From a virus, in the IMG/VR virus record IMGVR_UViG_3300027798_003516, positions 31,958 through 95,957 of that record: 64,000 nt of DNA. One strand, written 5' to 3'. Both the position numbers and the translations under genes were made by a program. This document shows positions 6,789 to 60,106 of the stretch, piece after piece. Numbering within the stretch: position 1 is the stretch's first letter; each line of letters opens with the position of its first letter. The notes under the pieces are model-generated. The model saw nothing but the letters and a program-made list of their open reading frames with translations, ran no database searches and had not been told where the DNA came from.

Positions 6789-6818
6789 TGTTATCTCCTT
6801 TAGATTTAGCAATGACAT

Positions 6819-38199: not shown

Positions 38200-38342
38200 G
38201 TTATTGTAGCAAAATACTTATAACAAGTCAAGAAAACAGGGCTACCAATGTGCCCTGTCTAGCGATACCGTATGTGGCGATTCTTCCGTTTTGATAATTA
38301 TATTACCAATTAAGTAGTGTGTTATTGCCCGATTATTGGTCA

Positions 38343-39466: not shown

Positions 39467-39490
39467 TGATAGAGTTCTTTAAAGCTATAT

Positions 39491-40663
39491 TTATACTTTT
39501 GGGCCGCTTGTTATTCCTTTTTCGTATATTTTATCATGAGAACTCTTTTCCCCGCACACTTCGGCACAAAATAACATTTTACCATTTTCCACAGAATCTT
39601 TATTCCAAGCATCATCAAAGAAGTTGTTGAATTTAGGGCCAGACAGTATGTCAACCAAGCTGTGTTTTCTAAGGTCAAATTCATCTAATCCTGTTTTATC
39701 AATTTTGTCATTGAATTGATATCTTGCATAGCTGGTATTTCGTTGTCCAAAGGCGCCGCCTAAATAACAGCAGGGTAATAAATGGCCGCTGGCCGATATA
39801 AAAATTTCCTGATGTTCTGTGTATTCAAATGATTTGCATTTAATCACTGATTCTTTACCAAGTGTACTGCTATATTTTGAAAGAATAGGAATATGATTAC
39901 TGAAACGGTCGATTGAAATTTTATATTCCTTACTGTGCTTTGGAACAACTCGTTCTCCCACATGGTCATGAGGCCAAATTGCATATTCAAAGTTGCCGTC
40001 TTTGTCATGCACATTCAATGATCGTTTTATGCCCTCTTGCTCTCCAAATCCCAGCGGAGTTTTAAGAATAAAAGTAAATCCCAACGATTCAGCCAGGGCT
40101 CGAGCTTCATCAACTTGATGTTTATTGTGATCAAAAATCAAATATTCCCAAATGCCATACCCGCCGGCCTCGCTGTATGCTTTCATATTGTCCCAGACCT
40201 TGTTCCAAACAACGCCGCGTCGATAAATGTGATTGGTATCTTCTAAGCCGTCGACTCCAAACACTACTCCGCTTTTGGAGAATGGAAAGTCTGGCTTGAA
40301 ATTGGGCTTGGGCAATAGTCTGGCAATCTTGGCCCAATGCTCGGGGCCGCGCATGCCACCATTGGTTCGCACCACCTGCTTTAAATTTTTACTGCCATAA
40401 ACTTTAAAGTATAACAAGGTGTCGGGCAAATCTTTAACCAGTCCTGGATCACCCAAGTTGCCACAATAGTTTATGTGTTCTATATTTTTAATTATTTCTG
40501 GGGTAAAAAATGCCCGCATGTCGTTGGTACTTAGATCAACCTGTTCAAAATCAGTCACTACCATGCCGCCGCTGTAGTTGCGACTGCATGCAGGACAGCT
40601 GGCATTGCATCTGCTGGATAATTCTATCTGCACTCTGCGTATCTTTGTTAGGTCATATATCAT
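39491..40663 (-). CDS. Radical SAM protein with C-terminal SPASM/twitch
   Basis: CNASCPAC, GNLGDP, TNGG, LPCC...C.EVC. Confidence 0.9.
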   Translation of the reverse strand: MIYDLTKIRRVQIELSSRCNASCPACSRNYSGGMVVTDFEQVDLSTNDMRAFFTPEIIKNIEHINYCGNLGDPGLVKDLPDTLLYFKVYGSKNLKQVVRTNGGMRGPEHWAKIARLLPKPNFKPDFPFSKSGVVFGVDGLEDTNHIYRRGVVWNKVWDNMKAYSEAGGYGIWEYLIFDHNKHQVDEARALAESLGFTFILKTPLGFGEQEGIKRSLNVHDKDGNFEYAIWPHDHVGERVVPKHSKEYKISIDRFSNHIPILSKYSSTLGKESVIKCKSFEYTEHQEIFISASGHLLPCCYLGGAFGQRNTSYARYQFNDKIDKTGLDEFDLRKHSLVDILSGPKFNNFFDDAWNKDSVENGKMLFCAEVCGEKSSHDKIYEKGITSGPKV

Positions 40664-41373
40664 TTAAGTGCGGCTCTCAGGCTGTCTGCTACTATTTTAT
40701 CAAATGTAGCAGAGGGTGTGCCATGCGATATCATGTGTATCCTGGGCTCTGTGCTGTTGTTCCATACACTATGTATGTTACCAATGTCAACCAGGCAAGC
40801 ATTACCTGAATTTTTAAAAGGAACATCGCCGCAATCTTTCATTCTAAAAACACAACCGTCAGGATTGTTTAATGCCACATTGATTGGAGATAAGAAATGT
40901 TCTGTTCTATCTTGATGTGGTTCAATGTAGCCCTGCGGATCCAGCCACATGTATCGCAGTCGCTGATAATTATGGTTTGGAAATTCGTCTCTAAAGTATT
41001 GCGTAGTGACCGGACAGCGTTCTGCAATTTCTGTCCATTTATACACAATGTCATTGGCTGTCCGACCTGCATTTTCAGGATAGGCGGTGTAGTAGTCTGT
41101 TTTATTCCAAGCTTCGCCGTGTAAACAAATGCTTCGCCAGCCTGGACTGCCATAACTTCTATGTGCAATAAACAAGTCCTCTAATGCCAGTGCTTCTGCC
41201 AGCATGTCTGCATAAGGGGCACCAGGCAATTCTAATGGCAGGTATGGCCAGCCACTTTTGTGTACCAGCCACTGTACCAGTTCTCTGTCGGATTCCAATT
41301 CAGGAACTGCCTGTTCTTTAAAATTAAAAGTCCAGGGCGTGCCGGCAAAAAATTCAACAACCTGTTCATTCAT
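40660..41373 (-). CDS. Asp/Asn beta-hydroxylase-like oxygenase
   Basis: GWRS..LHG, PHQD, HSVWN.S..PRIH. Confidence 0.8.
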   Translation of the reverse strand: MNEQVVEFFAGTPWTFNFKEQAVPELESDRELVQWLVHKSGWPYLPLELPGAPYADMLAEALALEDLFIAHRSYGSPGWRSICLHGEAWNKTDYYTAYPENAGRTANDIVYKWTEIAERCPVTTQYFRDEFPNHNYQRLRYMWLDPQGYIEPHQDRTEHFLSPINVALNNPDGCVFRMKDCGDVPFKNSGNACLVDIGNIHSVWNNSTEPRIHMISHGTPSATFDKIVADSLRAALK

Positions 41374-42814
41374 ATTGTATTTTACCATGTAGCTGTGTTT
41401 GATATCCACCAGTGTGATCATTCCCAACCATTTGTACACAAACATTGTTGTCAACTACAGATTTTAGAAACTCGTCCCAATATGCTTTTAATTCACCAGG
41501 TGGAAAATTCCTAACTGTAGCCGGCGTATAAAAACTATTACTGATCCATATCATATTATTCCCTTGGTGTGATTGCATATCACATAATAAGGATTCATAA
41601 TCACTCAACAGATTTATTTTTAAATACGCATGCTCCAGTGCCTTGTACTTGTTCCAGAACTTTAACCATTGTTGTTGGCCACCAAATAAATCAAGTGTAT
41701 TTGCCCATTCCTGTGGATATTGTTGTTGACGACCAGGCATCCAAATTGGGTCAAATTCTGGAACCAGTTGATTATAGTCTGCAATGGCCTTGATATAATC
41801 TTCTCCGTCCCAGTTTTCAACTAGCCATTTTCTAAAATCCAGTGCTTGCTGACTATAATCAATGTATACAACCCTCGAAGCAGTTGAGTCGACTTGAGTC
41901 AACAATTGAAAAGGTTTAAATCCAGCGGCCACTGCATATAGTGTATTCAATTTCATTGTTGGATAAAAACCTATCTGTTCTAAGCTCATACTGTCATTGT
42001 TGAACACAAAAACAGCGTTGGGAACTCGACTAAAGTCTGTCTCTTTAAGATATTGATGTTGTGCGTATGTTGGACCAGTTGGTTCAACTGTTAGGCCAGT
42101 TTCGCCGTCCAAAATTCGCTGAAATCTGTCATCGTCGATTTCAGGGTACAGGTATGATTTCTTTCTACGGGCACTTTCCGAGAAATTCGCAATGGCCACA
42201 TTGTTTGACAACAAGGTTGCAATTAAATTCCATCCTTGTTTGACTGCACCTGTATAAGTTTGCTCATTGGATGGCACCTTGTCGGTACGAGGCCCCGTTG
42301 GCATTAACCACAGTGGAGTGTAATCGTCGTGAATATTTTCTACACTACGATTATAATCTGGAAGTTTTAGATCTTTTACATGCTCATTGTTGCCGAATTT
42401 GGGCTTTCCAATCCGAGCCCAAACATCTAAATTCAAATAAAAGCTCTGCGGATGAATTTGAAACCATGCACCTTGATTTTTAAACCATGCATTTTTATCA
42501 TAATTCTTATCTTCTAATATATGTGCCACTAAACCATACTGATTACTTTCAGCAAAGTCATGAATTTCGTACAGTAAACTATGGTCACTGGTGATATATC
42601 CAATGCTCATGACATAGATATAGTTATAACCTAGATCATATGCTTGATTTAATAGGATATCAATGCTGTCACTTTCAAACAAATTCTTGTCATTTTTATC
42701 AATTCTAACTTTTGACACTTTAATATCAAACAGAGTAATTGCACGAACATGATCTCTGTATTCTTTTGACTTGTGTCCAAGTTGATCATATAACCCAAAT
42801 GCTATTTTTTTCAT
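41366..42814 (-). CDS. Two-domain protein; C-terminal half possibly SAM-dependent transferase-like
   Basis: YAVAAGF...VVYIDYS..AL...WISN. Confidence 0.45.
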   Translation of the reverse strand: MKKIAFGLYDQLGHKSKEYRDHVRAITLFDIKVSKVRIDKNDKNLFESDSIDILLNQAYDLGYNYIYVMSIGYITSDHSLLYEIHDFAESNQYGLVAHILEDKNYDKNAWFKNQGAWFQIHPQSFYLNLDVWARIGKPKFGNNEHVKDLKLPDYNRSVENIHDDYTPLWLMPTGPRTDKVPSNEQTYTGAVKQGWNLIATLLSNNVAIANFSESARRKKSYLYPEIDDDRFQRILDGETGLTVEPTGPTYAQHQYLKETDFSRVPNAVFVFNNDSMSLEQIGFYPTMKLNTLYAVAAGFKPFQLLTQVDSTASRVVYIDYSQQALDFRKWLVENWDGEDYIKAIADYNQLVPEFDPIWMPGRQQQYPQEWANTLDLFGGQQQWLKFWNKYKALEHAYLKINLLSDYESLLCDMQSHQGNNMIWISNSFYTPATVRNFPPGELKAYWDEFLKSVVDNNVCVQMVGNDHTGGYQTQLHGKIQYE

Positions 42815-43737
42815 TGAACTTTCCATAATGTAACATTATCTAATACGATAGAACTAATTGTGCTTTTCATTAAACTTGACCAATTGACTGTGTTAACTAT
42901 CTTGCCCAAGGGCCAGCGATTCAGTTTCTTGTCACTGGCTTGATAATCAGCCATGAACTCTGGATTGTCAATTATGCTGGCATATATCATGTGAGGATCA
43001 AACATGACATTTGGAGTCATAAAGCTGTTGCCCCACACATCCGTTTCCAATAGGTTGTCTTCGTCTAGCCAGGCCTTCATGTGATCTTTGCCCTGTATGT
43101 CTTCATTGATCCATACATCATAATGATATTCTTCAGTGACCGGGTCAAATGAGTCAGTGATACCTTCTGCATGGCCACTGACCCATAATGCATTACTGCC
43201 TTCTAATGCTCGAGCATCTGCACAAAATGCGCTGTATTGCAACCGATTGTCAAGGGCGGCCCGGCGGCTCAGCGCCGGATATGTGACAAACTCCAGGTCA
43301 TGTACATTTTGATTGATGGCGTGAATTGAATGAAACAGTTGATCAACACTGACCCCATTGGGCATTGCTATTTTGCCACTGTAGTATTCGGTGGCCACAG
43401 TGGTAAAATGGCGGTGCCAAGTGTTGAGTTGCACTTGCGTCAGCTTGTAAGGGTCGTTTAATAACAGTGATAGGTCTGCAATTTCTTTATTAAAATTCAA
43501 CCCAAGATGCTGTTGTAAAAATACAAAGCTGTTGTGCAATTGATTCAGAGGCGGCAATGGATCTGCTTGATACTGCTTGGACATACCATGACTGCTGAAG
43601 TTCCATAATATGGCTGGCAATCTAGCGGCAGTACGAGTCAGGTATTGTCGCCATTCATTTACAAATTTATTATCTAATAATTCAACTTGAACTTGCTGTT
43701 GTTCATTGTCCAGAGTTGTATAATTGTATACCAGCAT
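42811..43737 (-). CDS. Hypothetical protein in the radical SAM operon
   Basis: HRHF...IH.IN..VH.LE, GKD. Confidence 0.7.
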   Translation of the reverse strand: MLVYNYTTLDNEQQQVQVELLDNKFVNEWRQYLTRTAARLPAILWNFSSHGMSKQYQADPLPPLNQLHNSFVFLQQHLGLNFNKEIADLSLLLNDPYKLTQVQLNTWHRHFTTVATEYYSGKIAMPNGVSVDQLFHSIHAINQNVHDLEFVTYPALSRRAALDNRLQYSAFCADARALEGSNALWVSGHAEGITDSFDPVTEEYHYDVWINEDIQGKDHMKAWLDEDNLLETDVWGNSFMTPNVMFDPHMIYASIIDNPEFMADYQASDKKLNRWPLGKIVNTVNWSSLMKSTISSIVLDNVTLWKVQ

Positions 43738-44990
43738 TAGACCAATCCTATAAATTGTGCAAAATTAACAGGTTTATTTCTGCGCTGTGTGTATTGCTCA
43801 AAGAATACATCACTGTCTTGCCGCAGAGCTGGTTGATTATCTTTGATTAAACCTGCATCTAACATTTTAATCAGTCGCTCAGTGTACTCTACTTCAAATG
43901 GAAGTAAATCATTTTGAATACTGGCATAGAAAGCCGTGTATTTTTTGATATAAAAGTCTCTGTCTGCTCTGCTTAGACAACCAAAGCCCTGGAAGTCTGG
44001 TTTGTCTACCATATTAATAGTGACGGCTGGTTTAATACGAGTGCGCTCGCGCATGGCAATGATGTCAATATACATTTTATCCAAGGCTTGCAGGCTAATT
44101 GCGCTACAGGTTGTGCTGACTGTGGCCACACTGACATTGCTATTACATAATAATTCCATGTTATGCAACCATTCATCGTAGACCATGCCTTCACGAATAA
44201 ACTCAGCCACTGCGCCTGCGCTTTCATTGCTGACATTGACACGCAGGTTGTTTAATCGTTTGGCTTTTTCTAAGAATCGTTCAATTACCACGGGCTTTTG
44301 GCAAAGGTTAGTGTGTATTACACATTCAACATTGGGATTGATCTCTATCATCCGGTCAAACAGTTTGAATACTTCTTCGTGCATGAGTGGTTCGCCACCA
44401 CTGACACGAATACTTTCTAGTCCTGGAGCAACTGTTTCAAACCACTGCCAGAACAATGTCATATCTGGGGGTGCGATCATTTCATCCAGTTCGTTCAGAT
44501 CCTTTTGATAGTGCTTGCGGTCGTCTGTGATGATTCCAGTGTATACACCGCGAGTTCGAATGTCATTGATCCAGCTGGTGCTGAACTGTGGACTACAATA
44601 GCTACAGGCCAGGTTGCAGGTGTTTTGAAATGCCAACTCCAATGCTTTTGGTTTAAAGTTGTAAGCAGGATCAAAATATTCCTCTGCTGTCAAATGATCC
44701 GTAAATGCCAGGCTTTTGCGAGTACGATCACTGGTCAAGCCAAGATTCTCAAAATGCCAGCAACTGTTGCAAGCAGGTGGTTGTTCGCCAGCCAGCATGC
44801 TTTGTTGGTGACTGCGCTTGTCTGGGGGATTGTAGAATGTGTCAACAGTGGTGCCAACCTGCAGGAATGGCGTATAATGACAGCTGGCTATCTTGCCCGA
44901 GTACACCCAAATGCTTGCTTCGTGAAACTTGGCCAAACAAAATGTTGGACTTGTTGCCTGACGAATTTTAAACAGTTTTTGCTCATTCAT
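43737..44990 (-). CDS. Radical SAM protein with N-terminal twitch domain
   Basis: FCLAKF..SCH..CNSC; CNLACSYC; GGEP. Confidence 0.92.
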   Translation of the reverse strand: MNEQKLFKIRQATSPTFCLAKFHEASIWVYSGKIASCHYTPFLQVGTTVDTFYNPPDKRSHQQSMLAGEQPPACNSCWHFENLGLTSDRTRKSLAFTDHLTAEEYFDPAYNFKPKALELAFQNTCNLACSYCSPQFSTSWINDIRTRGVYTGIITDDRKHYQKDLNELDEMIAPPDMTLFWQWFETVAPGLESIRVSGGEPLMHEEVFKLFDRMIEINPNVECVIHTNLCQKPVVIERFLEKAKRLNNLRVNVSNESAGAVAEFIREGMVYDEWLHNMELLCNSNVSVATVSTTCSAISLQALDKMYIDIIAMRERTRIKPAVTINMVDKPDFQGFGCLSRADRDFYIKKYTAFYASIQNDLLPFEVEYTERLIKMLDAGLIKDNQPALRQDSDVFFEQYTQRRNKPVNFAQFIGLV

Positions 44991-46309
44991 TAGTAATCAA
45001 ATTCGTCGTGTAGATCATGTTGGGTCATGTAGTCTCGAATATCAGCATGCTCTGGGAATGTGATCCAGAAGTCTTCTCCGCGAATTGTATCCAGCTTCTT
45101 GGTAATGCGACTAAAGTTCTTCAAACTGTCATGCAAGCTGGTGATCTTATAAGTTTCAAGTGAGCGTACTTGCCACATGAACCCAATGGCTGTTTCGTAC
45201 ATAAACAGAGTTTGTTTATTGCATCCTCGTTCCTGTAGCCAAGCCATGTGTTCTCTAAAAAGCTTTTCAATTTGATGCTTCTTCCAGTCTGGAATATTTT
45301 TCAATGAGTAATAGCTTGGCCCATCTAAGACATTTAATAAGATGTTGTCTGGATGAATATAACCAAGTTCTACCCATTCTCTGTGGAATTCAATTAGGTT
45401 GTGAGCATTGGGCCAGCTGAGTGTGAAGCCAATGTTGAATTTAACATGTGGAGATTCAGCTCGCATACGCAATCTATTTGCTATTACATCCTTCCACACA
45501 AGTCCATGACGCCAATATTCGCCCTTGGCATGACTTCCGTCCAAGCTGGCATTGACATTTATATTTTTAAAGTTCTTCCAATATTCAACAACATCATGCT
45601 TGCCCAATGTCAGTTTACTAAAGTTTGTATTATACCTGACTTCGCATGTGGTATTGCCAAGTTCTACCAGTTTGTTTAAAACTTCGTAGTGTTCTTTTTG
45701 CATCAAAGGTTCGCCACCAGCAAAGTAAACGCTTTTCATTGTGGGCAGGTGTGGCATCATTTCCTCTAATGCTTGTTCTTCTGTTTGCCCAGGAAACTGT
45801 AGTTCATCATTGATGTCTTCTTTTACTTTTTTATTGTACAGCTTGCGACTATCCACAATCCAACTGGTGCTAAAGTGCGGGCCGCAACTGCGACAGGCCA
45901 GGTTGCATAGGTTATTAAAGCGAACATCCATGTAGATCAACTTGTGTTCATCTAGGCTACCATCAGGATTGGTTGCGGCCACAATTGAGTGGACAGCTTG
46001 ATTATTCTTAAAGAAGTCATCGTTAAATTTGTTCTTGAACTCTGCTTCTAATTCAACCCTACTGTTGCAACGGCCACAGTTGGGGTCTTCTTCTCCGTTT
46101 AGAAACTTTAAACGCATGGCTCGAGTGGCGTCATTGTTCCAAATTTCTTCCAGTGTATTTTGTTTAAGACTGCCTATTTGTTCTTTGTGTTCGTATACAC
46201 AGCAAGGCTTGACGTCTCCGGGTGGCCCAACATATTGGTGAATCCATGGAAGGATGCAAAAAGTTCTACTTTTCTTTGCTAACTCTAGCGGTTTAAATTC
46301 AGTGTTCAT
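44990..46309 (-). CDS. Radical SAM protein with N-terminal twitch domain
   Basis: FCILPW..PCC..CGRC; CNLACRSC; GGEP. Confidence 0.92.
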   Translation of the reverse strand: MNTEFKPLELAKKSRTFCILPWIHQYVGPPGDVKPCCVYEHKEQIGSLKQNTLEEIWNNDATRAMRLKFLNGEEDPNCGRCNSRVELEAEFKNKFNDDFFKNNQAVHSIVAATNPDGSLDEHKLIYMDVRFNNLCNLACRSCGPHFSTSWIVDSRKLYNKKVKEDINDELQFPGQTEEQALEEMMPHLPTMKSVYFAGGEPLMQKEHYEVLNKLVELGNTTCEVRYNTNFSKLTLGKHDVVEYWKNFKNINVNASLDGSHAKGEYWRHGLVWKDVIANRLRMRAESPHVKFNIGFTLSWPNAHNLIEFHREWVELGYIHPDNILLNVLDGPSYYSLKNIPDWKKHQIEKLFREHMAWLQERGCNKQTLFMYETAIGFMWQVRSLETYKITSLHDSLKNFSRITKKLDTIRGEDFWITFPEHADIRDYMTQHDLHDEFDY

Positions 46310-46317
46310 AATGATAT

Positions 46318-47445
46318 TTATTCAGCAGGCATGGACTGGTAGTCGTCAATCAATCTTTGTATATGTTCATTATGGTTGCGAACAGTCACTAGCTTTTTTA
46401 ATTCATTGATACCTTTACTCAAAAGGGCTGTGTCAATATTGGTTGTGAATTGTAAAGACTCTTTATATAGATCCAGAAGCCGTTGAAACTGATGGTTGGG
46501 TGCAGACTGTGGTAACAATGCCACCAGGCTGTCTCGCATGGAGCATGGAAGCAAATCAACTGCATAATGCTCTGGTCTATCAAGTTTTGTCAAATGCAAA
46601 CTATCTGTATCAATATAATTTAACAGCAACCAATTGTAATAAGGCAAAAATGAGTCAGCATTTAGCCAAGACAAAGTGAAATTAAACCCGTAATTTAGAT
46701 TGTCGTGCAACTGTGTCAACTCTCGAAAGTAATCAACATTGACTTTCATTTTGTCAAATGAGGCGCCGTAACGCAGTGAATCAAATACCTCGTCAACTCC
46801 ATCTACACTGAATTGAATCAATACTCGCTTGAAGTTTTTTAATTCGGATTCAATTACTTTTAGTGAAGTAGTACCATTTGTTGTTATAACCAGCTCGGTA
46901 ACGCTGGCATGATCGCCAGCGGCCAACCATTTGATAAATTTCAAAACCACTGGATTGATCAATGGTTCGCCACCAAAAATTTCCAGGCGTAACTTATTAA
47001 AGCTTGAGTTAGATATAGTATCTTCGATCATTGCAAGCTTGTCACTGCCCTGGTCTATCATGGTGGTAAAGTACTTCTTGGTGAGCCCGCGAGCATTGAA
47101 CTTGTCCAACTTTTCCCACTCACTTATGTGCTGGCTACTGTAATAGGGATTACAACTGATACATTTGATATTGCAGAGATTGTCAAAGCATACACCAATG
47201 ACCAGCTCATTTACATCTTTAAACAACTGTCGATGGCTCCATGTTGCGCCTGCACTTTCTTGATCAATACAATGTCGACAGCCGGTGGCAATATCAATTT
47301 CACTCAATTTACTTTGATATTCGCTGTAGGTGGTGGCGCCGACACCGGGCTTGAACCAACAGCAAGGCATGTATGGCTTGGGTTCATTTGATATGTACAG
47401 GCCATGCCGATGAGCCAGACAGTTTTTAAAAGGTGTTAAATCCAT
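46318..47445 (-). CDS. Radical SAM protein with N-terminal twitch domain
   Basis: PCC..CRHC; CNIKCISC; GGEP. Confidence 0.9.
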   Translation of the reverse strand: MDLTPFKNCLAHRHGLYISNEPKPYMPCCWFKPGVGATTYSEYQSKLSEIDIATGCRHCIDQESAGATWSHRQLFKDVNELVIGVCFDNLCNIKCISCNPYYSSQHISEWEKLDKFNARGLTKKYFTTMIDQGSDKLAMIEDTISNSSFNKLRLEIFGGEPLINPVVLKFIKWLAAGDHASVTELVITTNGTTSLKVIESELKNFKRVLIQFSVDGVDEVFDSLRYGASFDKMKVNVDYFRELTQLHDNLNYGFNFTLSWLNADSFLPYYNWLLLNYIDTDSLHLTKLDRPEHYAVDLLPCSMRDSLVALLPQSAPNHQFQRLLDLYKESLQFTTNIDTALLSKGINELKKLVTVRNHNEHIQRLIDDYQSMPAE

Positions 47446-48611
47446 TTTGCCAATTCTGGAAAGGTCTTTTCAAAACTTTCCCCTCTGATTATGTCGTGTT
47501 GTTTGGTATATTTTACAAACTTATTCCACAATGTTGGATTGTGGGCACTTGCACCCAGTCTATCTGCAAAGAAGGCCAAATCTTTATTGCCATTGATACT
47601 GCGAATAAATGCAGACCTTACATTGTCTGGTACAATTTCAATGTTATACCATTCAGGACGAGTTACTTGAACAAAGTAGCAAAGTATTGAAGTTTCATTG
47701 GCCTTGTTAATAATATCATTTATGTTTAAAAAGTTCAATATGCTGACGGTAATGCCCCAAGAAAGAGATACATTTTTTAATTTTAAATTGAACAATCGCA
47801 GATAGTTATCATACACTTGGTCCCAATCTGCTGGATGGCGCATGTAATTAAATTGTGAGCCTATTCCGTCAATGCTGTATTGTATGTCTACTTGTTTAAA
47901 ATGTTCAAACAGTTTAATTTTTTCTTCTGGATATTGTGTGCCATTGGTGTTGAAGTGTAGTACAATATTTCCTGCTACTCCCTTTTCAATGCATGTTTCT
48001 AGCATGGCCCACATTTCTTTACTGAGCCAAGGTTCGCCACCGTACACTGAAATAACACGAATGGTATCCAAGTGCTGGTACAAATCCGGCCAGAATCTGC
48101 TGGAATTGTTATGCCATGATCGAGATTCATTGATCCAAATTCCAAACTTTTTAACTTCGTTGTCGAATGCATATGGTAGTGTGTCTTTGTATACTGTATA
48201 AAACTCATCCACCCATTGGCTACTGGAATACGGCCCACATGTTCTACACTTTAAATTGCAAGTATTACCTAGATATAATTCCAATACTCCTAGATCAGTA
48301 GAGATTGAATCAATGTGCGTTGTCAGCCGTTCATTGTCACTTTGTCTTTTGCTCTTAACACCACTGTCTTCATCATCAAAGCATAGTTTGCAACCAGGAT
48401 GTCGTTGCCCTGTGTTCAGTGCAGTTCTTGCTTGGACAAATCTTGTATTGCTGGAGCATTCGTCAATGGTGTTATTTTTAACATTTAAAGTATTTGCCCA
48501 TCCACTTCCGTCATCAAATTTACAACACAAGGTTGCACTTCCGTTTGGATGAATTGCCAGACCTGTGTTGGCAGTGATACACCATGTTGCTTTATTTTGT
48601 TCTGTTAACAC
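47436..48611 (-). CDS. Radical SAM protein with N-terminal twitch domain
   Basis: LCC..CKLC; CNLKCRTC; GGEP. Confidence 0.9.
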   Translation of the reverse strand: MLTEQNKATWCITANTGLAIHPNGSATLCCKFDDGSGWANTLNVKNNTIDECSSNTRFVQARTALNTGQRHPGCKLCFDDEDSGVKSKRQSDNERLTTHIDSISTDLGVLELYLGNTCNLKCRTCGPYSSSQWVDEFYTVYKDTLPYAFDNEVKKFGIWINESRSWHNNSSRFWPDLYQHLDTIRVISVYGGEPWLSKEMWAMLETCIEKGVAGNIVLHFNTNGTQYPEEKIKLFEHFKQVDIQYSIDGIGSQFNYMRHPADWDQVYDNYLRLFNLKLKNVSLSWGITVSILNFLNINDIINKANETSILCYFVQVTRPEWYNIEIVPDNVRSAFIRSINGNKDLAFFADRLGASAHNPTLWNKFVKYTKQHDIIRGESFEKTFPELAKWI

Positions 48612-48614
48612 GGA

Positions 48615-49892
48615 TCAAATCCATCCTGCTAATTCCGGAAATGTTTCTGCAAAGTTAAGACGTCTACGCTTGTCATATTCTGCTGTGAATCGAGCAAACT
48701 GATCTCGGCGATGTGCCTGCTCAATCACATTCATTACGGTGTGTCTAGACTTCCAGAACTGATAGACCATTTCCCATGTTTCTCTTTCAATGCTGACAGT
48801 GGGATTGGTCAGCACAAAGTCATTGACAGCATCAAAGTATTGATCGCAACTGTCTGGCAAGATGCGTAGGTCAAACTGCTTGGGATCAACCAGACGACAG
48901 CAATTGAACATGATGTCGATACCGTCGGCTCGCATGTCAATGACTTTTTGCACAAAGACATTGAAGTTAAACACACTCATCAAGCCAAATGTAACCATCA
49001 CCCTAATAGGCACTCCAAATGTTGTGCTGACCTTGCGTACTGTTGCTTCCCACTTGACAATGTCAAGTCCATCACGAATGTATTCTGCTTGTGGTCCCCA
49101 TGTGTCCATGCTGGTGTAAACTTCGAGACCCTTAATAGTCTTTGCTTCAAGCAATGCTGTTGCCTTGGTAAAGAATAGATCCAAGTTCTTTTCTGGCACA
49201 CACAGGTTGGTGTTGACAACCAATGTCAGCTCAGGATTATGATTCTCTGCCACATAATCCAACAGCTTCATAAAGTTACGGGTGGCCAAGGGTTCGCCAC
49301 CAGTGATGCGTAGATAACGCAGGCCTGAATATATTTCAGGTAACCACTTCCAAAATGCATCAATGTAAGGATTATTATCCTCGGGTATCATGTCGTGCAT
49401 CTTGTCTCGATGCACAGTCGGATCTTCAATCGGATATGAACCGTACTTGCTTATTTCATGTTCCCATGTTGAGCTTTGCCCGGGACTGCAATAGCTACAG
49501 GCAAAGTTGCAGGTGTTGGCAAATGAAATTTCCAAGTGTGCTGGTCCAACAGGACGGTCTGCTGGCGCAGATAATATCTCTTGCCTGCGTTCAATGGCCC
49601 AGGTTTCATTGGTAAAACGCTTGCGGTCACTGACTGCTGTGGCATCAATGTCTTCCATGTCCCAACAATAACTGCACTCTTTGGGCCTGATGCCATTCAG
49701 CATCATTTCTCGCTGTTTGATCTTGTGCTTGCTGTTGTGCAATGCACCTGGGTTTATGTTTACATCCGCCAAGTCCCAACGATGGATTGGTGGATGGTAG
49801 CAGGAGTGATTCTCACCCATGCCAAAGTGCATGGTGACCATCAGCCACTTGGCCGCACAAAAGCTGTGTTCAATATTAATTGGTATCTGCAT
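48615..49892 (-). CDS. Radical SAM protein with N-terminal twitch domain
   Basis: FCAAKW..SCYH..CSYC; CNFACSYC; GGEP. Confidence 0.92.
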   Translation of the reverse strand: MQIPINIEHSFCAAKWLMVTMHFGMGENHSCYHPPIHRWDLADVNINPGALHNSKHKIKQREMMLNGIRPKECSYCWDMEDIDATAVSDRKRFTNETWAIERRQEILSAPADRPVGPAHLEISFANTCNFACSYCSPGQSSTWEHEISKYGSYPIEDPTVHRDKMHDMIPEDNNPYIDAFWKWLPEIYSGLRYLRITGGEPLATRNFMKLLDYVAENHNPELTLVVNTNLCVPEKNLDLFFTKATALLEAKTIKGLEVYTSMDTWGPQAEYIRDGLDIVKWEATVRKVSTTFGVPIRVMVTFGLMSVFNFNVFVQKVIDMRADGIDIMFNCCRLVDPKQFDLRILPDSCDQYFDAVNDFVLTNPTVSIERETWEMVYQFWKSRHTVMNVIEQAHRRDQFARFTAEYDKRRRLNFAETFPELAGWI

Positions 49893-51069
49893 TTATAATG
49901 TTTTCCAGTTCAGGCACATAAGTTTTATAGTTTAACTCACGACTCTTATCTAACGCTGTAACAAACTCTCTGGCTTTGACCGTCAACTCAGGAATCCAAG
50001 GCCTGTCAAGTTTGGCATACAATTCATTTCTCTTGGCATCATCAAACTTGTATTCGTACTTGGATTTCAATTGTGCTTTAAGTGCAGTTGGAACAGCCTG
50101 TAAACTTAGATAGTCTGGATACAACACATAGTTATGCGTTGTATTTTTATCAAATGAATATAGCATCCAGTCATCCAGTTTGTCTAGATTAAACACATTG
50201 AATATGCTGACAGTTTGTGTCACATGCCAGTCAACTGTGTGAATTGCGTCCAATTTCTTGATGCTGTTGACTGTGTCAACCCATACACTGGGCCAACGAA
50301 TATAATAATTTCTAGCACCATAGTCGTCAACACTACAGTTGACAGTGACTCGTTTAAAGTGTTTCCATAAGTCAGCCAGCCTGTCTGGAATATCCATCAT
50401 GTTAAGACTGTACACCAGGTGTACCTGTTGTGCTTGCCCTGAGGCTATCAGCTTTTCAAGGTAACCAAAGTGTGCTTTGATCAGCGTTGGCTCGCCACCG
50501 TTGATGTATATCTCTTCCACATCATTGCTCAATACAGCCAGCTCTTGGTAAAACTCTGGACGGTCGTGCCACTTGAAGTTTTCCATTGGTCGCAATGTAA
50601 ACCAAGGCAAGTCCTTGGCAATCTTAACTTCATCTCCGTACCACTTGCTACTGCTAAAACTGTTACAGGTTACGCAGGCATTGTTGCATACATTGCCAAG
50701 TCTTAGCTCAACATAACGATAGTTTGGTTTGGTCAATACCGCTGTTTGTTCCAGCTCTGGTACAATGTGTGCCCAGCGTTCATTTTCGTACATGCGCTTG
50801 CTGACCAGCCCTGCGGCTTCATCCTGCCAGCAACCTTCGCATTCAACGGGTTCCTTGCCATCAATCATATCTTGTCGTACACGAACAAAGTTGTCACTGT
50901 TGGCAATGGTCAAGATGTTGGTATTATCAAAGGTCTGCAATTCTGTTGTGCGCGGCTTCATTGCCCAACTGACTGCATCAGTATGATTGCTACGACAGCA
51001 TAGACTGACTCCGCCATTGGGATGGCTGGCCAGGTGCATCCAAGGCAGTACGCATCTTGTGTCTTTCAT
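49876..51069 (-). CDS. Radical SAM protein with N-terminal twitch domain
   Basis: CVLPW..LCC..CEGC; CNNACVTC; GGEP. Confidence 0.92.
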   Translation of the reverse strand: MKDTRCVLPWMHLASHPNGGVSLCCRSNHTDAVSWAMKPRTTELQTFDNTNILTIANSDNFVRVRQDMIDGKEPVECEGCWQDEAAGLVSKRMYENERWAHIVPELEQTAVLTKPNYRYVELRLGNVCNNACVTCNSFSSSKWYGDEVKIAKDLPWFTLRPMENFKWHDRPEFYQELAVLSNDVEEIYINGGEPTLIKAHFGYLEKLIASGQAQQVHLVYSLNMMDIPDRLADLWKHFKRVTVNCSVDDYGARNYYIRWPSVWVDTVNSIKKLDAIHTVDWHVTQTVSIFNVFNLDKLDDWMLYSFDKNTTHNYVLYPDYLSLQAVPTALKAQLKSKYEYKFDDAKRNELYAKLDRPWIPELTVKAREFVTALDKSRELNYKTYVPELENIINADTN

Positions 51070-52451
51070 AGACTGTTCCACCATGCCAGCAGTTCTGGAT
51101 CTGCAGAATAGATTGTGGCCATAGTTGTTTTGTCTTTGCGGATTGTTTCCAACCGCTTGACCCAATTCATTCCGTTGCGGGCCGCAGACTTGTAAGTTTC
51201 TGGAAAGGCTTCTTCATGTGTTTGTCTGGTATCACGCATGGACTCAAGTGCGCTGATCACACTCCATTGTTTTGGTCCTGCCAAGGGTCGCATGTAAGCA
51301 ACAAGTTCCTCAATGTGTCGATTTAAAATATGTCTGGGCCACGACATTGGTGTCCACATGATGTCTGCATGGAACGCAAATGTAATCTTTGTGATGATTT
51401 CAACATCTAATTCCAAGCTTAGTTCAAATAGATCTTTGAGTGCAAACATGCCTGGTGCTGTGATTGTCAAGTCCAACTTCATGCGCTCTCGGCCGCCGGG
51501 TAAGCTTACACCTTCTTTAAAGTTGGCCAGCCATTCGTTCCACTTGATGCCTGTACGAATGTATTCTACAATTTCACCTGTGCCATCTATGCTGGCACAC
51601 ATCATCCAGTCTTTGAATTGCGGCAGATAATCAAACAGATTCTTTTTTCCAAATACCACACGACTTAGATTGCTGTTGTAGCGCATGTAACAATCTTTTG
51701 CACTGCCATTACGAAGCATTTCTTCTAAGGTCCACCAATGTATATCATACATCAATGGCTCACCGCCTACCCAATACATTTCTTCAATGATGCCACGCTG
51801 TACTGCATCTCTGAATTCGGGCTCTACCACACGAGCTTGGAAGTCTTGCATGGCAGACTTTATTTCAGGAACCATGAAGGGTTGGTCTTTGGGTGTCCAA
51901 AGGTCATGTTGTTTCTTTTCAACTTCCCAACTACTGCTCAATTGTTCTCCACACATGCGGCATTTGAAATTACATAGGTTACTGAACCTATAGTCAAAGC
52001 TGACAGGTTCCATTGTGGTATGGCCTGTTTCATCTGTTGCATCAAACGCCGCTTGAATTTGTTCGCGGAATAGATTACCTGTAAACCAACCCTTGTAACT
52101 GCCTTCCATTAGTAAATTATGATTGCACACATCACATTGTGGAATTTCTTCACCAGCCATCAGCTTGACACGAATATCTTTCATGTAGTCGCTGTTCCAG
52201 TGTTCTTTTAAACTGACTGGCTGATAATCTGACAATGATGTCTTGCTTTCAGTCACTGCTCCGTAGGCCTTGTCATTGCTACTGTCAATGTATTGCTTCT
52301 GGAAGCTGTGCTCTTCTCTACTGGCACAACATAGTCTACGCTCACTTTGCGGACTGATGTAAGTATGGCGCCATGGAGCCATACAGAAGTAAGGATTGGG
52401 ATTATCCTTGGCTGGCTTACCTGGTTCCCAAATTGGTATTACTCGTTTCAT
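51066..52451 (-). CDS. Radical SAM protein with N-terminal twitch domain
   Basis: FCMAPW..LCC..CDVC; CNFKCRMC; GGEP. Confidence 0.92.
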   Translation of the reverse strand: MKRVIPIWEPGKPAKDNPNPYFCMAPWRHTYISPQSERRLCCASREEHSFQKQYIDSSNDKAYGAVTESKTSLSDYQPVSLKEHWNSDYMKDIRVKLMAGEEIPQCDVCNHNLLMEGSYKGWFTGNLFREQIQAAFDATDETGHTTMEPVSFDYRFSNLCNFKCRMCGEQLSSSWEVEKKQHDLWTPKDQPFMVPEIKSAMQDFQARVVEPEFRDAVQRGIIEEMYWVGGEPLMYDIHWWTLEEMLRNGSAKDCYMRYNSNLSRVVFGKKNLFDYLPQFKDWMMCASIDGTGEIVEYIRTGIKWNEWLANFKEGVSLPGGRERMKLDLTITAPGMFALKDLFELSLELDVEIITKITFAFHADIMWTPMSWPRHILNRHIEELVAYMRPLAGPKQWSVISALESMRDTRQTHEEAFPETYKSAARNGMNWVKRLETIRKDKTTMATIYSADPELLAWWNSL

Positions 52452-53986
52452 TGTAAGTCCGGGTTGAAAAATTCTTCTTTGCTTGGATCTTCGGGCGGAT
52501 GGTCTGGAATATGTCCAGTTTCATCGCTGTATGTTCCACTTAGGATTTCTTCTCTCGAAGGTGTTGGTGTATCAATGCTGTCATACCAGTCCACAAACTC
52601 TTGCGGAAATGTTGCGCGGAAATCCTTGCCTCTACGCACATCATATTGTGTGTAGAAGTTTTTAAAGTCCAAGTGCTGTTGGCCCATGTCCTTGACATTC
52701 TTGTGCGGCGTCTTAATGACATCAAGATAGTCAATCAGCCGTTGTGTTTGTTCACGCTCAATTGGAGTCATAATAGGCCAACCATGTGGTCCTGTGCCCA
52801 TTTGTACTCTTTCATCCTGTGCAATTATATTATCCAACCATGCTTGTAGTTTGTCGCGATACTTTTGTCTAATGCTGGTTGGCAACATGGCGCAACTTTG
52901 GAAGCTGGGAAAACGCAGAATATTCAAACTCATTGTGGGATATACAGTCTTATGCTCACGCTTGAATTGCAATATTTCATCCATAAATTCTGTGATACTG
53001 GCAAGACATAGACTATTGATGGTCATCATCATGTGTGTCTTTTTAATATTGCCTTCAGTGTGCAAGCGATGCAAATTATCTTTCCACTTGCTGTATACCA
53101 TACCATCACGAATGTATTCGCTGTGTGCGCCCACACTTTCATTGCTGGTATAAACTTCAAGATGCGGAACAAACTTGCTCAGTTCAATGAACTTGTCCAT
53201 CAAGTCATCCTTGGGCACCAGGTTACTGTTGATGGCATAACGCAATACACCGCCATCGGCGCGGTTGGTTGCTCGCTCTTGATTGTCTTTGAACCATTGC
53301 ATCAGTTTCCAAACACCCGGTGCCATCAAGGGTTCGCCACCAGTGATGCGAATCTCTTCTAAGTTGTCAGCAAGCCCTTCGTCCCACCATCGCCAGAACG
53401 CTTTGATGTAAGGATTACTTTCGTCTGCAATTGGAATGGCATGGTCAGCCGCATTGATAAAGTGACTACGAGCATCTCCATCAATGTTACGATACGGGCC
53501 AAACTTCTTGATGTCTTTGACCCAACTGGTGCTGAAGCTGGGGTTGCAATAACTGCAAGAAAAGTTACAGGTACGGTCAAACGAAATTTCCAATGTCTTT
53601 AACATTGTATCGTGTTGCCAATGCGTGGTGGCGGCCGCAATGATGTCTTTGTCCGTGAATACCGCAGTTTTGTACACACGATCACTGATGCTGTTACGGC
53701 CCAAGTCCTCAATCTTCCAGCAGTATTCACATTCCTGTGGGCGAGTACCCTCTTGCATCATCTTACGCATCAGCTTCTTATGCGGTGTGTTGTGAATGGC
53801 GCTGGGATTTTCTTCGAGTTCGGCCGCATTGATTTGATGCCCCAGTGGATGGTGGCAACTGGTTGTTTGTCCATTGCCCAACCAAATTGTGGCATTAAGC
53901 CATTTGGCCGCACAGAAGCTGTCGCTAGTGCTGTCAACCATCCGAATTTTGTATTCGGCAAAGGATTCATCATGTTTTTTTGGCAT
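52448..53986 (-). CDS. Radical SAM protein with N-terminal twitch domain
   Basis: FCAAKW..SCHH..CEYC; CNFSCSYC; GGEP. Confidence 0.92.
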   Translation of the reverse strand: MPKKHDESFAEYKIRMVDSTSDSFCAAKWLNATIWLGNGQTTSCHHPLGHQINAAELEENPSAIHNTPHKKLMRKMMQEGTRPQECEYCWKIEDLGRNSISDRVYKTAVFTDKDIIAAATTHWQHDTMLKTLEISFDRTCNFSCSYCNPSFSTSWVKDIKKFGPYRNIDGDARSHFINAADHAIPIADESNPYIKAFWRWWDEGLADNLEEIRITGGEPLMAPGVWKLMQWFKDNQERATNRADGGVLRYAINSNLVPKDDLMDKFIELSKFVPHLEVYTSNESVGAHSEYIRDGMVYSKWKDNLHRLHTEGNIKKTHMMMTINSLCLASITEFMDEILQFKREHKTVYPTMSLNILRFPSFQSCAMLPTSIRQKYRDKLQAWLDNIIAQDERVQMGTGPHGWPIMTPIEREQTQRLIDYLDVIKTPHKNVKDMGQQHLDFKNFYTQYDVRRGKDFRATFPQEFVDWYDSIDTPTPSREEILSGTYSDETGHIPDHPPEDPSKEEFFNPDLQ

Positions 53987-55628
53987 CGTCTATTCTCATT
54001 TGTAGTAACTTACATTCATTGTAGTAGGAGTTCATCTCTGGAAAAACTTCTAAGAAGGTGGTGTCTCTGCGTCTATCATACTCATTTATGTATTGATAAA
54101 ATTGTAGTCTATTTGTTTGAACAACAGCAGGATCTTTGCCTTCTTTAATTATAGCAAGATTTCTTTCAAGTTTCAAGATCTCATGTGGCTTAAAACCTTC
54201 AAATGTTTCTCTGTAATCTTCTCGCTGTGCATTGCTACGCATGAACTCCAAGCAATCTTCTATGGTTCTAATTAGCACTGGAGTGGCATTTTGTGGATCA
54301 AACCAATTGGGATATTTTAGCAACGGTATGTCTAAAAATATTCTTTGAAATTTCTTTTGGAAATACTTGGTGTGTTCAATGCCATGTTCTTTTTCGTGGT
54401 CGGTTGGTTCAGGAGCAATTTCAAATTCAGTTTGATTCTTTCCGCCAAATTCTACTCGTAAATCTAATACCATTTGCAACCAGCTTTTTAAACTTGGAAT
54501 TGATAGGATATTAAAGGTGTTGATAAAACTTACGGTGGTGTATCTTGTTTCAGTTAGGAACTTTCTAGTATTAGACATCAACCTTTCATAATCTAGCCCA
54601 GTACGCATATACTCTGCTTGCTGACCTACACCATCTAGACTAATATATAACCAGAAGTGTTTAAAGCCTTTGTCTACATACCAATAGTTGTTGCTGAATT
54701 TGTTGAAGTTTTCAGTGTCTTCATAAGTGCGTATGACTTCGATGGCCTGCACCTTGCTGATAAATTTGTCAAATAACTTTTGATCCGGAGGACACATGTT
54801 GCTGGTAATGCTTAGTTCCAATTGTCCATGTGGATTCTCATTCACATAATCCAGCACCTTAAAGGTGTTCTTATCCATCAAGGGTTCACCGCCAGTCATA
54901 CGAAATACTCGTAGTGTACGATAAATCTCTGGCCACCATTTCCAGAATGCTGTCACATAAGGATTGTCCTTGACAGCAACTTCTAGCGGCATGTATCCTG
55001 AAACTTTTAAATTGCGTAGATTGTTATGATCAACTTTGGTCGAGCCTGGCAAGTCAAAGTTATAAGGTCCATGTTCTTTGATTTCTTCTTCCCATGCTGT
55101 GCTGATGTGAGGACTACAGTACATGCATTTAAAATTACAAGCTTGATTGAAGTTTACTTCAACATATCTTGGAACAATGTTAAAATCAACATCCTTTAGC
55201 ACCACATCGCGAAAGTCAGGTGCGGCCCACGCTTCGCTGGACTTGTAATGTCTATCACTAAGATGTCCTTGCGGGCCGCCACCAGGTGCGTCTTCTACCC
55301 GCCAGCAGTAACTACAACCTTCTGGCCGTTTGCCAGTTAACATTAGTTCTCGTTCTTGTTTTTTGAACTTGGTGTTATGTAATGCGCTGTGATTTTCTTT
55401 GAGCTCTAGAAGAGGAATTGCATGCGGTGGCGGATGATAACAACTCTGTGTGGTACCATTGGCCAGATTAATACTGACTTGTAACCATTTGGCCAGACAC
55501 ATGGTTGGACTAATTTTGTCCAGGTGGTCTCGCATGTTTTCTGCCTTTTGAAAATACTCAGTGTAACCAAAGTTTTTTCTCTTGGGTGGCTCTTTTACCT
55601 GCTTGGAAATTTTGTCAAAGAAATTCAT
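53970..55628 (-). CDS. Radical SAM protein with N-terminal twitch domain
   Basis: CLAKW..SCYH..CSYC; CNFKCMYC; GGEP. Confidence 0.92.
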   Translation of the reverse strand: MNFFDKISKQVKEPPKRKNFGYTEYFQKAENMRDHLDKISPTMCLAKWLQVSINLANGTTQSCYHPPPHAIPLLELKENHSALHNTKFKKQERELMLTGKRPEGCSYCWRVEDAPGGGPQGHLSDRHYKSSEAWAAPDFRDVVLKDVDFNIVPRYVEVNFNQACNFKCMYCSPHISTAWEEEIKEHGPYNFDLPGSTKVDHNNLRNLKVSGYMPLEVAVKDNPYVTAFWKWWPEIYRTLRVFRMTGGEPLMDKNTFKVLDYVNENPHGQLELSITSNMCPPDQKLFDKFISKVQAIEVIRTYEDTENFNKFSNNYWYVDKGFKHFWLYISLDGVGQQAEYMRTGLDYERLMSNTRKFLTETRYTTVSFINTFNILSIPSLKSWLQMVLDLRVEFGGKNQTEFEIAPEPTDHEKEHGIEHTKYFQKKFQRIFLDIPLLKYPNWFDPQNATPVLIRTIEDCLEFMRSNAQREDYRETFEGFKPHEILKLERNLAIIKEGKDPAVVQTNRLQFYQYINEYDRRRDTTFLEVFPEMNSYYNECKLLQMRIDDAKKT

Positions 55629-55634
55629 TAACAG

Positions 55635-55642
55635 TACTTATA
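55635..55642 (-). promoter_or_regulatory. Late-promoter-like octamer heading the radical SAM operon
   Basis: TATAAGTA 6 nt before the ATG at 55628, just downstream of a terminator. Confidence 0.55.
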
Positions 55643-55671
55643 AAAAACAAAAGGCCACTAAAGGCCTTTTG
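55643..55671 (-). terminator. Intrinsic terminator insulating the radical SAM operon
   Basis: caaaaggcc-N6-ggccttttg plus a U-tract. Confidence 0.75.
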
Positions 55672-56651: not shown

Positions 56652-57188
56652 TTATTCTCCTTGTAGGTATTTCATAACATTTTCAGGACTAGATACTCCG
56701 TATGGGTCTGCATCATCTTTGGATGATTCTGGTTCTTTAAACATCCGTTCTACCTTACCACTACTTATAATAGCCGCATAGCGGTGACTGCGTGAACCAA
56801 ACCCAATGTCACTCATGTCAACCAACATATCCATCAGTCTGGTAAATTTGCCGGCGCCATCTGGAATAACTTTTACATTTTTAATGTCAAGGCTACGAGC
56901 CCACTCGTTCATAACAAAGGCATCGTTGACACTGACACAATAAATCTCATCAATGCCTTGAGCTTTAAAGTCGTTGTATTGTTCTTCAAAGCCCGGTAAC
57001 TGATAGGTTGAACAAGTGGGTGTAAATGCACCAGGAAGACTAAAAATGATTACTCGGTTATCGCCAAACAACTCATTGGCTGTTTTGAAAACAAACTCTC
57101 CACCAATTGGGCAACCACCACCTTCGGGTGCCTCGTCGCCTTCGCGAAATGCAAAGGTCACATTGGGTATAAATTTTGTATTTTCCAT
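56652..57188 (-). CDS. Peroxiredoxin (Prx5/Redoxin family)
   Basis: LPGAFTPTCS, SVNDAFVM..W, DG.G.FT, RS.RY. Confidence 0.93.
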   Translation of the reverse strand: MENTKFIPNVTFAFREGDEAPEGGGCPIGGEFVFKTANELFGDNRVIIFSLPGAFTPTCSTYQLPGFEEQYNDFKAQGIDEIYCVSVNDAFVMNEWARSLDIKNVKVIPDGAGKFTRLMDMLVDMSDIGFGSRSHRYAAIISSGKVERMFKEPESSKDDADPYGVSSPENVMKYLQGE

Positions 57189-57189
57189 A

Positions 57190-60085: not shown

Positions 60086-60106
60086 GTGCATCCTTTAAAA
60101 TATGTA

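Follow-up and report, generated by a model that had tools for sequence, protein, structure and literature searches.

A 64,000-nucleotide stretch of IMG/VR virus record IMGVR_UViG_3300027798_003516 (hereafter called the window) carries on its minus strand a run of 13 closely packed genes. Nine of these encode tandem paralogues, called T1 to T9, of radical S-adenosylmethionine (SAM) enzymes in which an auxiliary twitch domain precedes the radical SAM core. They are followed by two proteins called U308 and U486, an oxygenase dependent on 2-oxoglutarate (2OG) and Fe(II), and a further radical SAM enzyme called SPASM390. The window constitutes the 3′ two-thirds of the 95,957-bp virus record.

Gene content and boundaries of the locus

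The features of the locus are given below in the direction of reading, with scores against the family profile NF033640 and with ratios of nonsynonymous to synonymous substitution (dN/dS). Subfamilies A and B and the related loci (L001 and so on) are described in the following section.

55648-55671 (-): terminator-like hairpin after the upstream DUF3307 gene; 9-bp stem with 5 GC pairs, 6-nt loop, then TTTTTT; predicted; upstream limit of the operon
55635-55642 (-): TATAAGTA octamer, 6 nt ahead of the T1 start codon (ATG); differs from the T4 late promoter TATAAATA at one position; putative promoter
53970-55628 (-): T1, 552 aa, subfamily A; NF033640 287 bits; orthologue group support 100; dN/dS 0.049
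52448-53986 (-): T2, 512 aa, subfamily A; NF033640 299 bits; orthologues 72-76% identical in L002-L007; dN/dS 0.027
51066-52451 (-): T3, 461 aa, subfamily B; NF033640 298 bits; orthologues 71-75% identical; dN/dS 0.047
49876-51165 (-): T4, subfamily B, 429 aa if started at TTG but probably 402 aa (ATG at 51084); NF033640 324 bits; dN/dS 0.051
48615-49892 (-): T5, 425 aa, subfamily A; NF033640 282 bits; orthologues 72-74% identical; dN/dS 0.048
47436-48611 (-): T6, 391 aa, GTG start, subfamily B; NF033640 298 bits; long tree branch; absent from L001
46318-47445 (-): T7, 375 aa, divergent, own clade; NF033640 149 bits, match from profile position 63; dN/dS 0.106
44990-46309 (-): T8, 439 aa, subfamily B; NF033640 358 bits; nearest to the family profile and to bacterial single-copy members; dN/dS 0.041
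43737-44990 (-): T9, 417 aa, subfamily A; NF033640 242 bits; orthologues 71-74% identical; dN/dS 0.053
42811-43737 (-): U308, orphan protein; no Pfam or PHROG match; AlphaFold2 (AF2) mean predicted local distance difference test (pLDDT) score 93
41366-42826 (-): U486, two-domain protein; no Pfam match; AF2 pLDDT 89.9 (30 homologues)
40660-41454 (-): Asp/Asn beta-hydroxylase-type 2OG/Fe(II) oxygenase, probable start codon ATG at 41373; 45.9 bits to PF05118 (cut-off 22.6)
39491-40663 (-): SPASM390, canonical-order radical SAM enzyme: CxxxCxxC at the N-terminus, SPASM-like Cys cluster at the C-terminus
39488-39495 (-): perfect TATAAATA that overlaps the SPASM390 stop codon and precedes the neighbouring endonuclease gene by 22 nt; marks where the unit ends

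Neighbouring genes from 55628 to 39491 overlap by 1-17 nt or stand 3-8 nt apart, a layout from which we infer a translationally coupled single transcript of 13 genes. Two longer overlaps arise from TTG starts and vanish with internal ATG codons at 51084 in T4, whose L001 orthologue is also 402 aa long, and at 41373 in the oxygenase gene. A preliminary description of this DNA, made from the letters alone, had reported nine consecutive radical SAM genes at 43737-55628, two unknown proteins, an oxygenase and another radical SAM/SPASM gene downstream of them, an insulating terminator and a late-type octamer at the head. Open reading frames (ORFs) lie exactly at these positions, with PF05118 and SPASM390 as described, and the search also recovered the minus-strand hairpin (55671-55648), with its 9-bp stem and T-run, and the octamer (55642-55635).

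The octamers that bound the unit are candidates for T4-type late promoters. No TATAARTA site occurs inside 39496-55634. Across the window, five of the seven TATAARTA sites stand 4-22 nt upstream of a start codon on the same strand, three of them at 4-6 nt: 18966-18973 (+), 20386-20393 (-), 38215-38222 (-), 39488-39495 (-) and 55635-55642 (-). If these are true late promoters, the resulting transcripts would be nearly leaderless. The placement relative to start codons is the only suggestive aspect of these sites, as the counts of ATAAGTA (6, with 7.2 expected) and TATAARTA (7, with 4.3 expected) do not exceed chance. A scan for sigma-70 promoters was likewise at background (57 against 48).

The source appears, by kinship, to be a large uncultured T4-like jumbo phage. 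CheckV rates the record as 27% complete, implying a genome of roughly 350 kb. No match to gp23, the T4-type major capsid protein, was found in the 96-kb fragment itself. Such matches are present (E about 1e-100) in three relatives that bear a collinear array (G001, G002 and G004), which, together with the origin of the record as a virus fragment, supports the preliminary description in taking the locus for a phage operon. Because these relatives carry the T4-type capsid gene, assigning the octamers to a T4-like late promoter is reasonable, and the operon would then be expressed late. Among cultured phages, megablast found no match to the 16-kb operon, and protein searches gave only distant matches (23-27% identity), to genes that are unannotated in Vibrio and Ralstonia jumbo phages.

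Family, architecture and age of the paralogues

All nine T proteins match a single NCBIfam family, NF033640 (N_Twi_rSAM, 'twitch domain-containing radical SAM protein'), which is a 398-position profile with a curated cut-off of 170 bits. Eight of the nine pass the cut-off over nearly the full profile (T1-T6, T8 and T9, 242-358 bits). Only T7 falls below it (149 bits) because its N-terminus fits the profile poorly, and this protein retains all four auxiliary Cys residues. Pfam places a SPASM domain at the N-terminus (residues about 10-110) with Radical_SAM behind it, and PF04055 matches all nine proteins, several just under the gathering score. This search of each paralogue had been proposed in the preliminary description, which had named membership in one characterised housekeeping family as evidence against its reading. 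The paralogues do belong to one catalogued family, but NF033640 is neither characterised nor housekeeping.

The nine proteins share 19-36% identity. Invariant in their alignment (T1 numbering) are the N-terminal residues C44, C63, C105 and C108, the CxxxCxxC triad C164/C168/C171, the GGEP motif (G246-G247-E248-P249) and a few others. These are the CxxxCxxC, GGEP and N-terminal Cys cluster that had been noted by eye in each gene. A D..R...F..FPE-like tail, reported before for most of the proteins, is clear in six (T1, T2, T4, T5, T6 and T8).

The position of the auxiliary domain distinguishes these proteins from the archetypal twitch radical SAM enzyme, BtrN, the 2-deoxy-scyllo-inosamine dehydrogenase (an aminocyclitol dehydrogenase) of butirosin synthesis. 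When the N-terminal 110 residues of T8 are searched against the PDB, the sole match is the C-terminal twitch domain of BtrN (E 0.003), with all four Cys positions aligned, and the NF033640 profile likewise aligns its N-terminal domain to this twitch domain. Because the N-terminal domain of the T proteins aligns to a C-terminal domain of BtrN, the T proteins are circular permutations of the BtrN-type layout, in keeping with the earlier remark that such auxiliary domains are usually C-terminal. As in BtrN, the T proteins appear from their sequences to hold one auxiliary cluster that is fully Cys-ligated. They differ from BtrN in their low identity (E 0.003), in an additional C-terminal region of about 120 aa that bears the D..R...F..FPE motif, and in that no aminocyclitol pathway is evident around the T genes.

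A PDB profile search revealed no solved structure that is close overall. Over the radical SAM core only, the best match is 8vpo (E 1.6e-9), a cyclopropyl synthase-type RS-SPASM enzyme (TvgB-type) that acts on a peptide that is made on ribosomes and modified after translation (RiPP) (PMC10878394), followed by SkfB. The best profile matches over this core are thus RS-SPASM RiPP maturases (8vpo, SkfB, PapB and CteB), and there are weak NCBIfam side-matches to PapB, SkfB, CteB-like and mycofactocin maturases. These similarities suggest an alternative that we consider unlikely: the T enzymes may be RiPP/SPASM maturases that cross-link, epimerize or otherwise modify by radical chemistry different residues of a virion protein or ribosomal peptide encoded elsewhere in the genome, with the PF05118 enzyme then hydroxylating Asp/Asn and U486 glycosylating and methylating the product. 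In contrast to such maturases, no T protein has an RRE or PqqD-type domain at E <= 0.01, and a precursor search, with 27% of the genome in hand, found no small Cys-rich or repetitive ORF adjoining the array. Furthermore, the T proteins carry only the four auxiliary Cys of a twitch domain and lack the second cluster of the seven-Cys SPASM domain typical of peptide maturases, and their auxiliary domain lies at the other end of the protein.

A search of viral contigs uncovered 16 related array loci, and the array is not a chance pattern because it recurs in all of these. Gene calls in the related loci are simple longest-ORF calls. In a FastTree phylogeny of 133 family members, which has several long branches, T1, T2, T3, T4, T5, T8 and T9 each form an orthologue group with local support of 99-100. 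The same seven orthologues are collinear in nine loci (L002-L010) at 60-76% identity, with extra paralogues inserted between them, and the final SPASM-type gene follows in the same order (48-76% identity when it is included). T1, T2, T5 and T9 constitute subfamily A, which has the motif SC[YH]H and occurs only in viral loci and in contigs of metagenome-assembled genomes (MAGs) that bear arrays. T3, T4, T6 and T8 constitute subfamily B, which has the motif CC and includes bacterial single-copy genes, nearest to T8. T7 forms a separate divergent clade outside both. A 352-kb relative rated 100% complete (G001) has 13-14 family members, all in one array at 56-77 kb.

Relative to L001, which is 93% identical as judged from the T8 orthologues and lacks a counterpart of T6, the dN/dS values of the T genes range from 0.027 to 0.106. 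Thus, the paralogues are ancient, individually conserved and under purifying selection. The preliminary description had called them divergent yet intact and had suggested a comparison of synteny with related large phages. Their 19-36% identity and dN/dS of 0.03-0.11, far from the value near 1 that would have spoken against function, bear out the former, and the collinear arrays of L002-L010 together with the 13-14 copies in the 352-kb relative answer the latter. Its idea of a multi-step pathway also fits, as seven paralogues each have a conserved orthologue group of their own.

The array is also subject to turnover. T6 has no orthologue in L001 (site L001:8865-8874), and its GC content at third codon positions (0.34) is lower than that of its neighbours T5 and T7 (0.42-0.49). 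Conversely, L001 (12570-13133) has between T9 and U308 a 187-aa ORF that matches no Pfam family and is missing from the window. Individual cassettes are therefore gained and lost while the core stays stable, and the gain of the T6 cassette relative to L001 is specific to this locus.

NF033640 is a catalogued family without a characterized function. It has the same domain order as the T proteins, consisting of an N-terminal twitch domain, the radical SAM core and a C-terminal region. Most bacterial members found are single-copy, whereas one operon here holds nine paralogues and those of relatives hold up to 14. One T paralogue alone gave 3033 matches in aquatic metagenomes. Five to six tandem family members also occur on two MAG contigs, labelled 'Legionellales SP228' (L017, 42.7 kb) and 'Betaproteobacteria TMED41' (L028, 17.7 kb), where they group with the phage T1, T2, T3, T6 and T8-like groups. 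Rather than being bacterial, the DNA of these two contigs probably comes from marine phages and was mis-binned.

The downstream module and the genes around related arrays

The three genes directly after T9 form a module whose insertion in the array, together with its fused forms, is specific to this locus. The translated oxygenase has the H-Q-D and later His of the HxD...H iron triad of PF05118. U308 belongs to a family with only 49 representative clusters in 1.84 billion proteins. In its AF2 model, a four-helix bundle bearing the conserved residues H108, H146 and E149 is inserted into a beta-barrel. Foldseek found no match to this model at E <= 0.001, a search of the ESM Atlas yielded nothing, and the matches from VIA-align are generic (four-helix bundle Z 9.7, cyclophilin-like barrel Z about 8).

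U486 gave no PDB match in a profile sequence search. With VIA-align, residues 1-230 of its model match the GT-A fold (Z 9-11.2, 140-185 residues aligned, root mean square deviation about 3 Å), including Mimivirus R699, hyaluronan synthases, TarP/TarS, the LH3/ColGalT1 complex and the PBCV-1 capsid glycosyltransferase. The safe statement for this part of the model is that it resembles a nucleotide-sugar-handling fold. Residues 262-483 resemble class I methyltransferases in fold, with Z 8.5-10.9 against INMT, CheR and the methyltransferase domain of OvoA. This domain has a conserved AAGFKP with an invariant G302, corresponding to glycine-rich motif I, and an invariant acidic D323 after strand 2. 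The C-terminal part is thus class I SAM-methyltransferase-like, with a predicted activity of this type.

Natural fusions join these proteins in several orders: U486 with PF05118 (P0136, 696 aa), PF05118 with U486 (P0177, 712 aa) and U308 with PF05118 and U486 in one 1012-aa protein (P0245). Such fusions constitute a Rosetta-stone link, and U308, the oxygenase and U486 are therefore taken as one functional unit. The two proteins previously described as unknown are thus not free-standing but parts of this module, and U486 has GT-A-like and methyltransferase-like domains. A U486-oxygenase-radical SAM trio is also present in a distant phage lineage (L013-L015). The sister phages L003-L009 lack the module, and there T9 abuts the SPASM-type gene. 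Orthologues of SPASM390 (48-55% identical) thus follow directly after T9 in these phages, making this enzyme the conserved last member of the array. Behind it lie an unknown gene, a weak GDSL/SGNH-like match, one T paralogue, another unknown gene and a carbamoyltransferase gene.

The coupling of a 2OG/Fe(II) hydroxylase to GT-A domains in the U486-oxygenase fusions resembles that of LH3-ColGalT1 and of the Mimivirus hydroxylase-glycosyltransferases. Indeed, the strongest fold matches of U486 include LH3/ColGalT1 (Z 10.7) and Mimivirus R699 (Z 11.2), at a sequence identity of about 10%. Unlike these systems, the oxygenase here belongs to the AspH family (PF05118) rather than to PLOD, and U486 adds a methyltransferase-like domain. 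This logic, and the fact that PF05118 is a protein beta-hydroxylase family, would also suit protein or peptide maturation. The accessory genes of related arrays, which include those for carbamoyltransferase, DegT, short-chain dehydrogenase/reductase (SDR) and UDP-glucose dehydrogenase rather than proteases, transporters or leader-binding proteins, argue against it.

Identifiable genes in or beside the arrays mostly encode sugar or small-molecule tailoring enzymes. Arrays of relatives include genes for a carbamoyltransferase, a weak GDSL/SGNH-like match and an SDR, and other arrays include a DegT aminotransferase, a B12-dependent radical SAM enzyme (B12-rSAM), a weak match to the arginine deiminase (ADI)-like proteins of the amidinotransferase superfamily and a 2OG oxygenase. 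Near the arrays are genes for UDP-glucose dehydrogenase, adenosine 5′-phosphosulfate (APS) kinase and a weak cytidylyltransferase-like match. The arrays on MAG contigs are adjoined by carbamoyltransferase, DegT, GDSL and family 1 glycosyltransferase (GT1) genes. In the 352-kb relative, genes for a nucleoside diphosphate (NDP)-sugar epimerase/dehydratase and DegT and two short radical SAM genes lie about 20 kb downstream of the array (G001:C1:96356-99917). Among bacterial NF033640 members there are fusions with an FkbM-type methyltransferase domain and, as a weak match, with a family 2 glycosyltransferase (GT2) domain.

The same context could reflect a free natural product resembling an aminoglycoside or aminocyclitol, or remodelling of lipid A or lipopolysaccharide to block superinfection; the latter variant draws on the fact that PF05118 includes LpxO. 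We regard this alternative as quite improbable. The twitch domain finds its one structural match in an aminoglycoside enzyme (BtrN), and the DegT, weak ADI-like, B12-rSAM and carbamoyltransferase genes near related arrays resemble an aminoglycoside-like set. Moreover, a study of cyanophages labels a similar trio 'antibiotic synthesis genes' (PMC12801897), and modification of the O-chain has been proposed for neighbouring glycosyltransferases of pelagimyophages (PMC7029224). No scaffold-forming enzyme (such as 2-deoxy-scyllo-inosose synthase), exporter or resistance gene was seen, and no lipid-handling domain was found. The alternative also overlaps with a sugar pathway of the phage, since both take a sugar as substrate and differ solely in its destination.

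Elsewhere, the window encodes an A-type Fe-S carrier (PF01521; 2303-2641, -) and a cysteine desulfurase that is IscS-like (PF00266; 3131-4351, -), and these plausibly supply Fe-S clusters for the at least 11 radical SAM proteins of the fragment. A PTPS/QueD-like gene, a further radical SAM protein of 320 aa and a QueC-like fragment lie at 6279-6818 (-), 26032-26994 (+) and 26972-27619 (-), which suggests a separate 7-deazaguanine-type pathway. Several ORFs near these genes that the preliminary reading had called oxygenases have no Pfam match at E <= 0.001. Oxygenases outside the operon comprise a protein like the alpha subunit of Rieske/ring-hydroxylating enzymes, a TauD-family dioxygenase and a second PF05118 protein, encoded at 17071-17949 (-), 19508-20380 (-) and 35848-36615 (-). 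The operon is flanked by genes for a ClpX-like ATPase (32908-34137, -), a peroxiredoxin (56652-57209, -), a Bax-inhibitor-1-family membrane protein (57190-57909, -) and an ATP-dependent DNA ligase (58766-60091, -), a set of auxiliary genes that resembles that of marine T4-like phages.

The array might instead build or tailor a hypermodified base, or a sugar attached to DNA, as a defence against host restriction. Radical SAM enzymes serve in some phage thymidine hypermodification pathways, DNA glycosylation is classical in T4-like phages, and the PTPS/QueD-like, QueC-like and additional radical SAM genes indicate that this phage probably modifies guanine. Such a role is nevertheless very unlikely for the operon. 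It contains no DNA-binding, base-flipping, transglycosylase or kinase gene, the 7-deazaguanine-type genes lie 10-35 kb away in other units, and control by TATAA(A/G)TA late-type sites would come late for DNA modification. Furthermore, we know of no base pathway that needs anything near 7-14 distinct radical SAM steps.

Proposed function and significance

We propose that the operon performs radical tailoring of a sugar-bearing substrate, as a late-expressed glycan or sugar pathway of a T4-like jumbo phage, and we put the probability of this reading at about 0.5. In each radical SAM enzyme of the operon, SAM would bind to the CxxxCxxC [4Fe-4S] cluster and give rise to a 5′-deoxyadenosyl radical, which would then abstract one particular hydrogen from a substrate C-H bond. 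The fully Cys-ligated cluster of the N-terminal twitch domain would act as an electron conduit, as in BtrN. Expected outcomes would be oxidation to a ketone, epimerization, dehydration or deoxygenation, and C-C or C-X coupling. The distinct paralogues would each serve a separate position or step on a single complex substrate. This substrate would most likely be a nucleotide-sugar, an oligosaccharide, or a glycan on a surface component of the phage or host. Of the candidates listed in the preliminary description (virion proteins or glycans, a hypermodified base, or a metabolite), gene context favours a glycan or sugar, although none of the four is proven.

Accessory modules that are specific to each lineage would add other decorations. 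In this phage, the module of U308, U486 and the PF05118 hydroxylase may carry out hydroxylation followed by glycosyl transfer and methylation, by analogy to collagen LH3 and the Mimivirus enzymes. In sister phages, a carbamoyltransferase, an SGNH-like protein and a short-chain dehydrogenase would take the place of this module.

Several observations weigh against a sugar substrate. Profiles for GT2 and NTP_transferase match nothing in five related phage records, and the window itself has no recognizable nucleotide-sugar synthesis gene. Pfam finds no match for the majority of accessory ORFs near the arrays, and the bacterial single-copy members have no conserved neighbourhood and hence provide no independent confirmation from context. 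The radical SAM core is, by sequence, about equally near to RiPP maturases (8vpo, SkfB and PapB) and to sugar enzymes, and PF05118 enzymes classically hydroxylate proteins or lipid A. In U486, the DxD motif is ambiguous: E105-D106, at the end of a strand, is partly conserved, and H166-D167-D168 is present in 26-28 of 30 sequences. In addition, nucleotidyltransferases also adopt the GT-A fold, and sugar-nucleotide pyrophosphorylases head the Foldseek list. The literature yields no functional study of any NF033640 member.

The preliminary description had presented the operon as a candidate for an undescribed system. This holds for the family, which is uncharacterized, but cassettes of radical SAM genes in T4-like marine phages have been mentioned before. 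For one T4-like environmental marine genome, an A-type Fe-S carrier was reported together with 12 radical SAM genes (PMC5332604, Nishimura 2017), and the presence of this carrier alongside radical SAM genes parallels the IscS-like and A-type carrier genes of the window. In T4-like pelagimyophages, radical SAM cassettes are reported to lie among glycosyltransferases in a hypervariable host-recognition cluster behind the tail fibres (PMC7029224, Zaragoza-Solas 2020), a setting that favours the sugar reading. Both reports mention the cassettes, whose genes may belong to NF033640, in passing, with no family assignment, paralogue analysis or function.

The virus thus keeps 9-14 different radical SAM enzymes under strong purifying selection, in one operon and with its own genes for Fe-S supply. 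Some of the hardest reactions in biology are the work of radical SAM enzymes. The family has thousands of members in aquatic metagenomes, and identifying one substrate would bring annotation to a large block of viral dark matter and would probably uncover new chemistry of carbohydrates or natural products. The fused hydroxylase, U308 and GT-A-methyltransferase module provides a second, smaller entry point for experiments, and the small clusters in distant cultured phages (Vibrio jumbo phages and Ralstonia RsoM2USA) make the question testable.

A bolder form of the proposal, which we consider doubtful, is that the array constitutes a combinatorial line for radical glycan editing, wherein each of 7-14 radical SAM enzymes rewrites a different C-H position of a saccharide made by the phage. 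If this model is correct, the enzymes would carry out epimerization, deoxygenation, keto-formation and C-C bridging, and swappable end modules would add carbamoyl or acyl groups in the sister phages and hydroxyl, glycosyl and methyl groups in this one. What results would be a carbohydrate, either displayed on the virion or secreted as an aminoglycoside-like compound, with a chemistry that has no described counterpart, and NF033640 would represent a large new class of carbohydrate radical enzymes.

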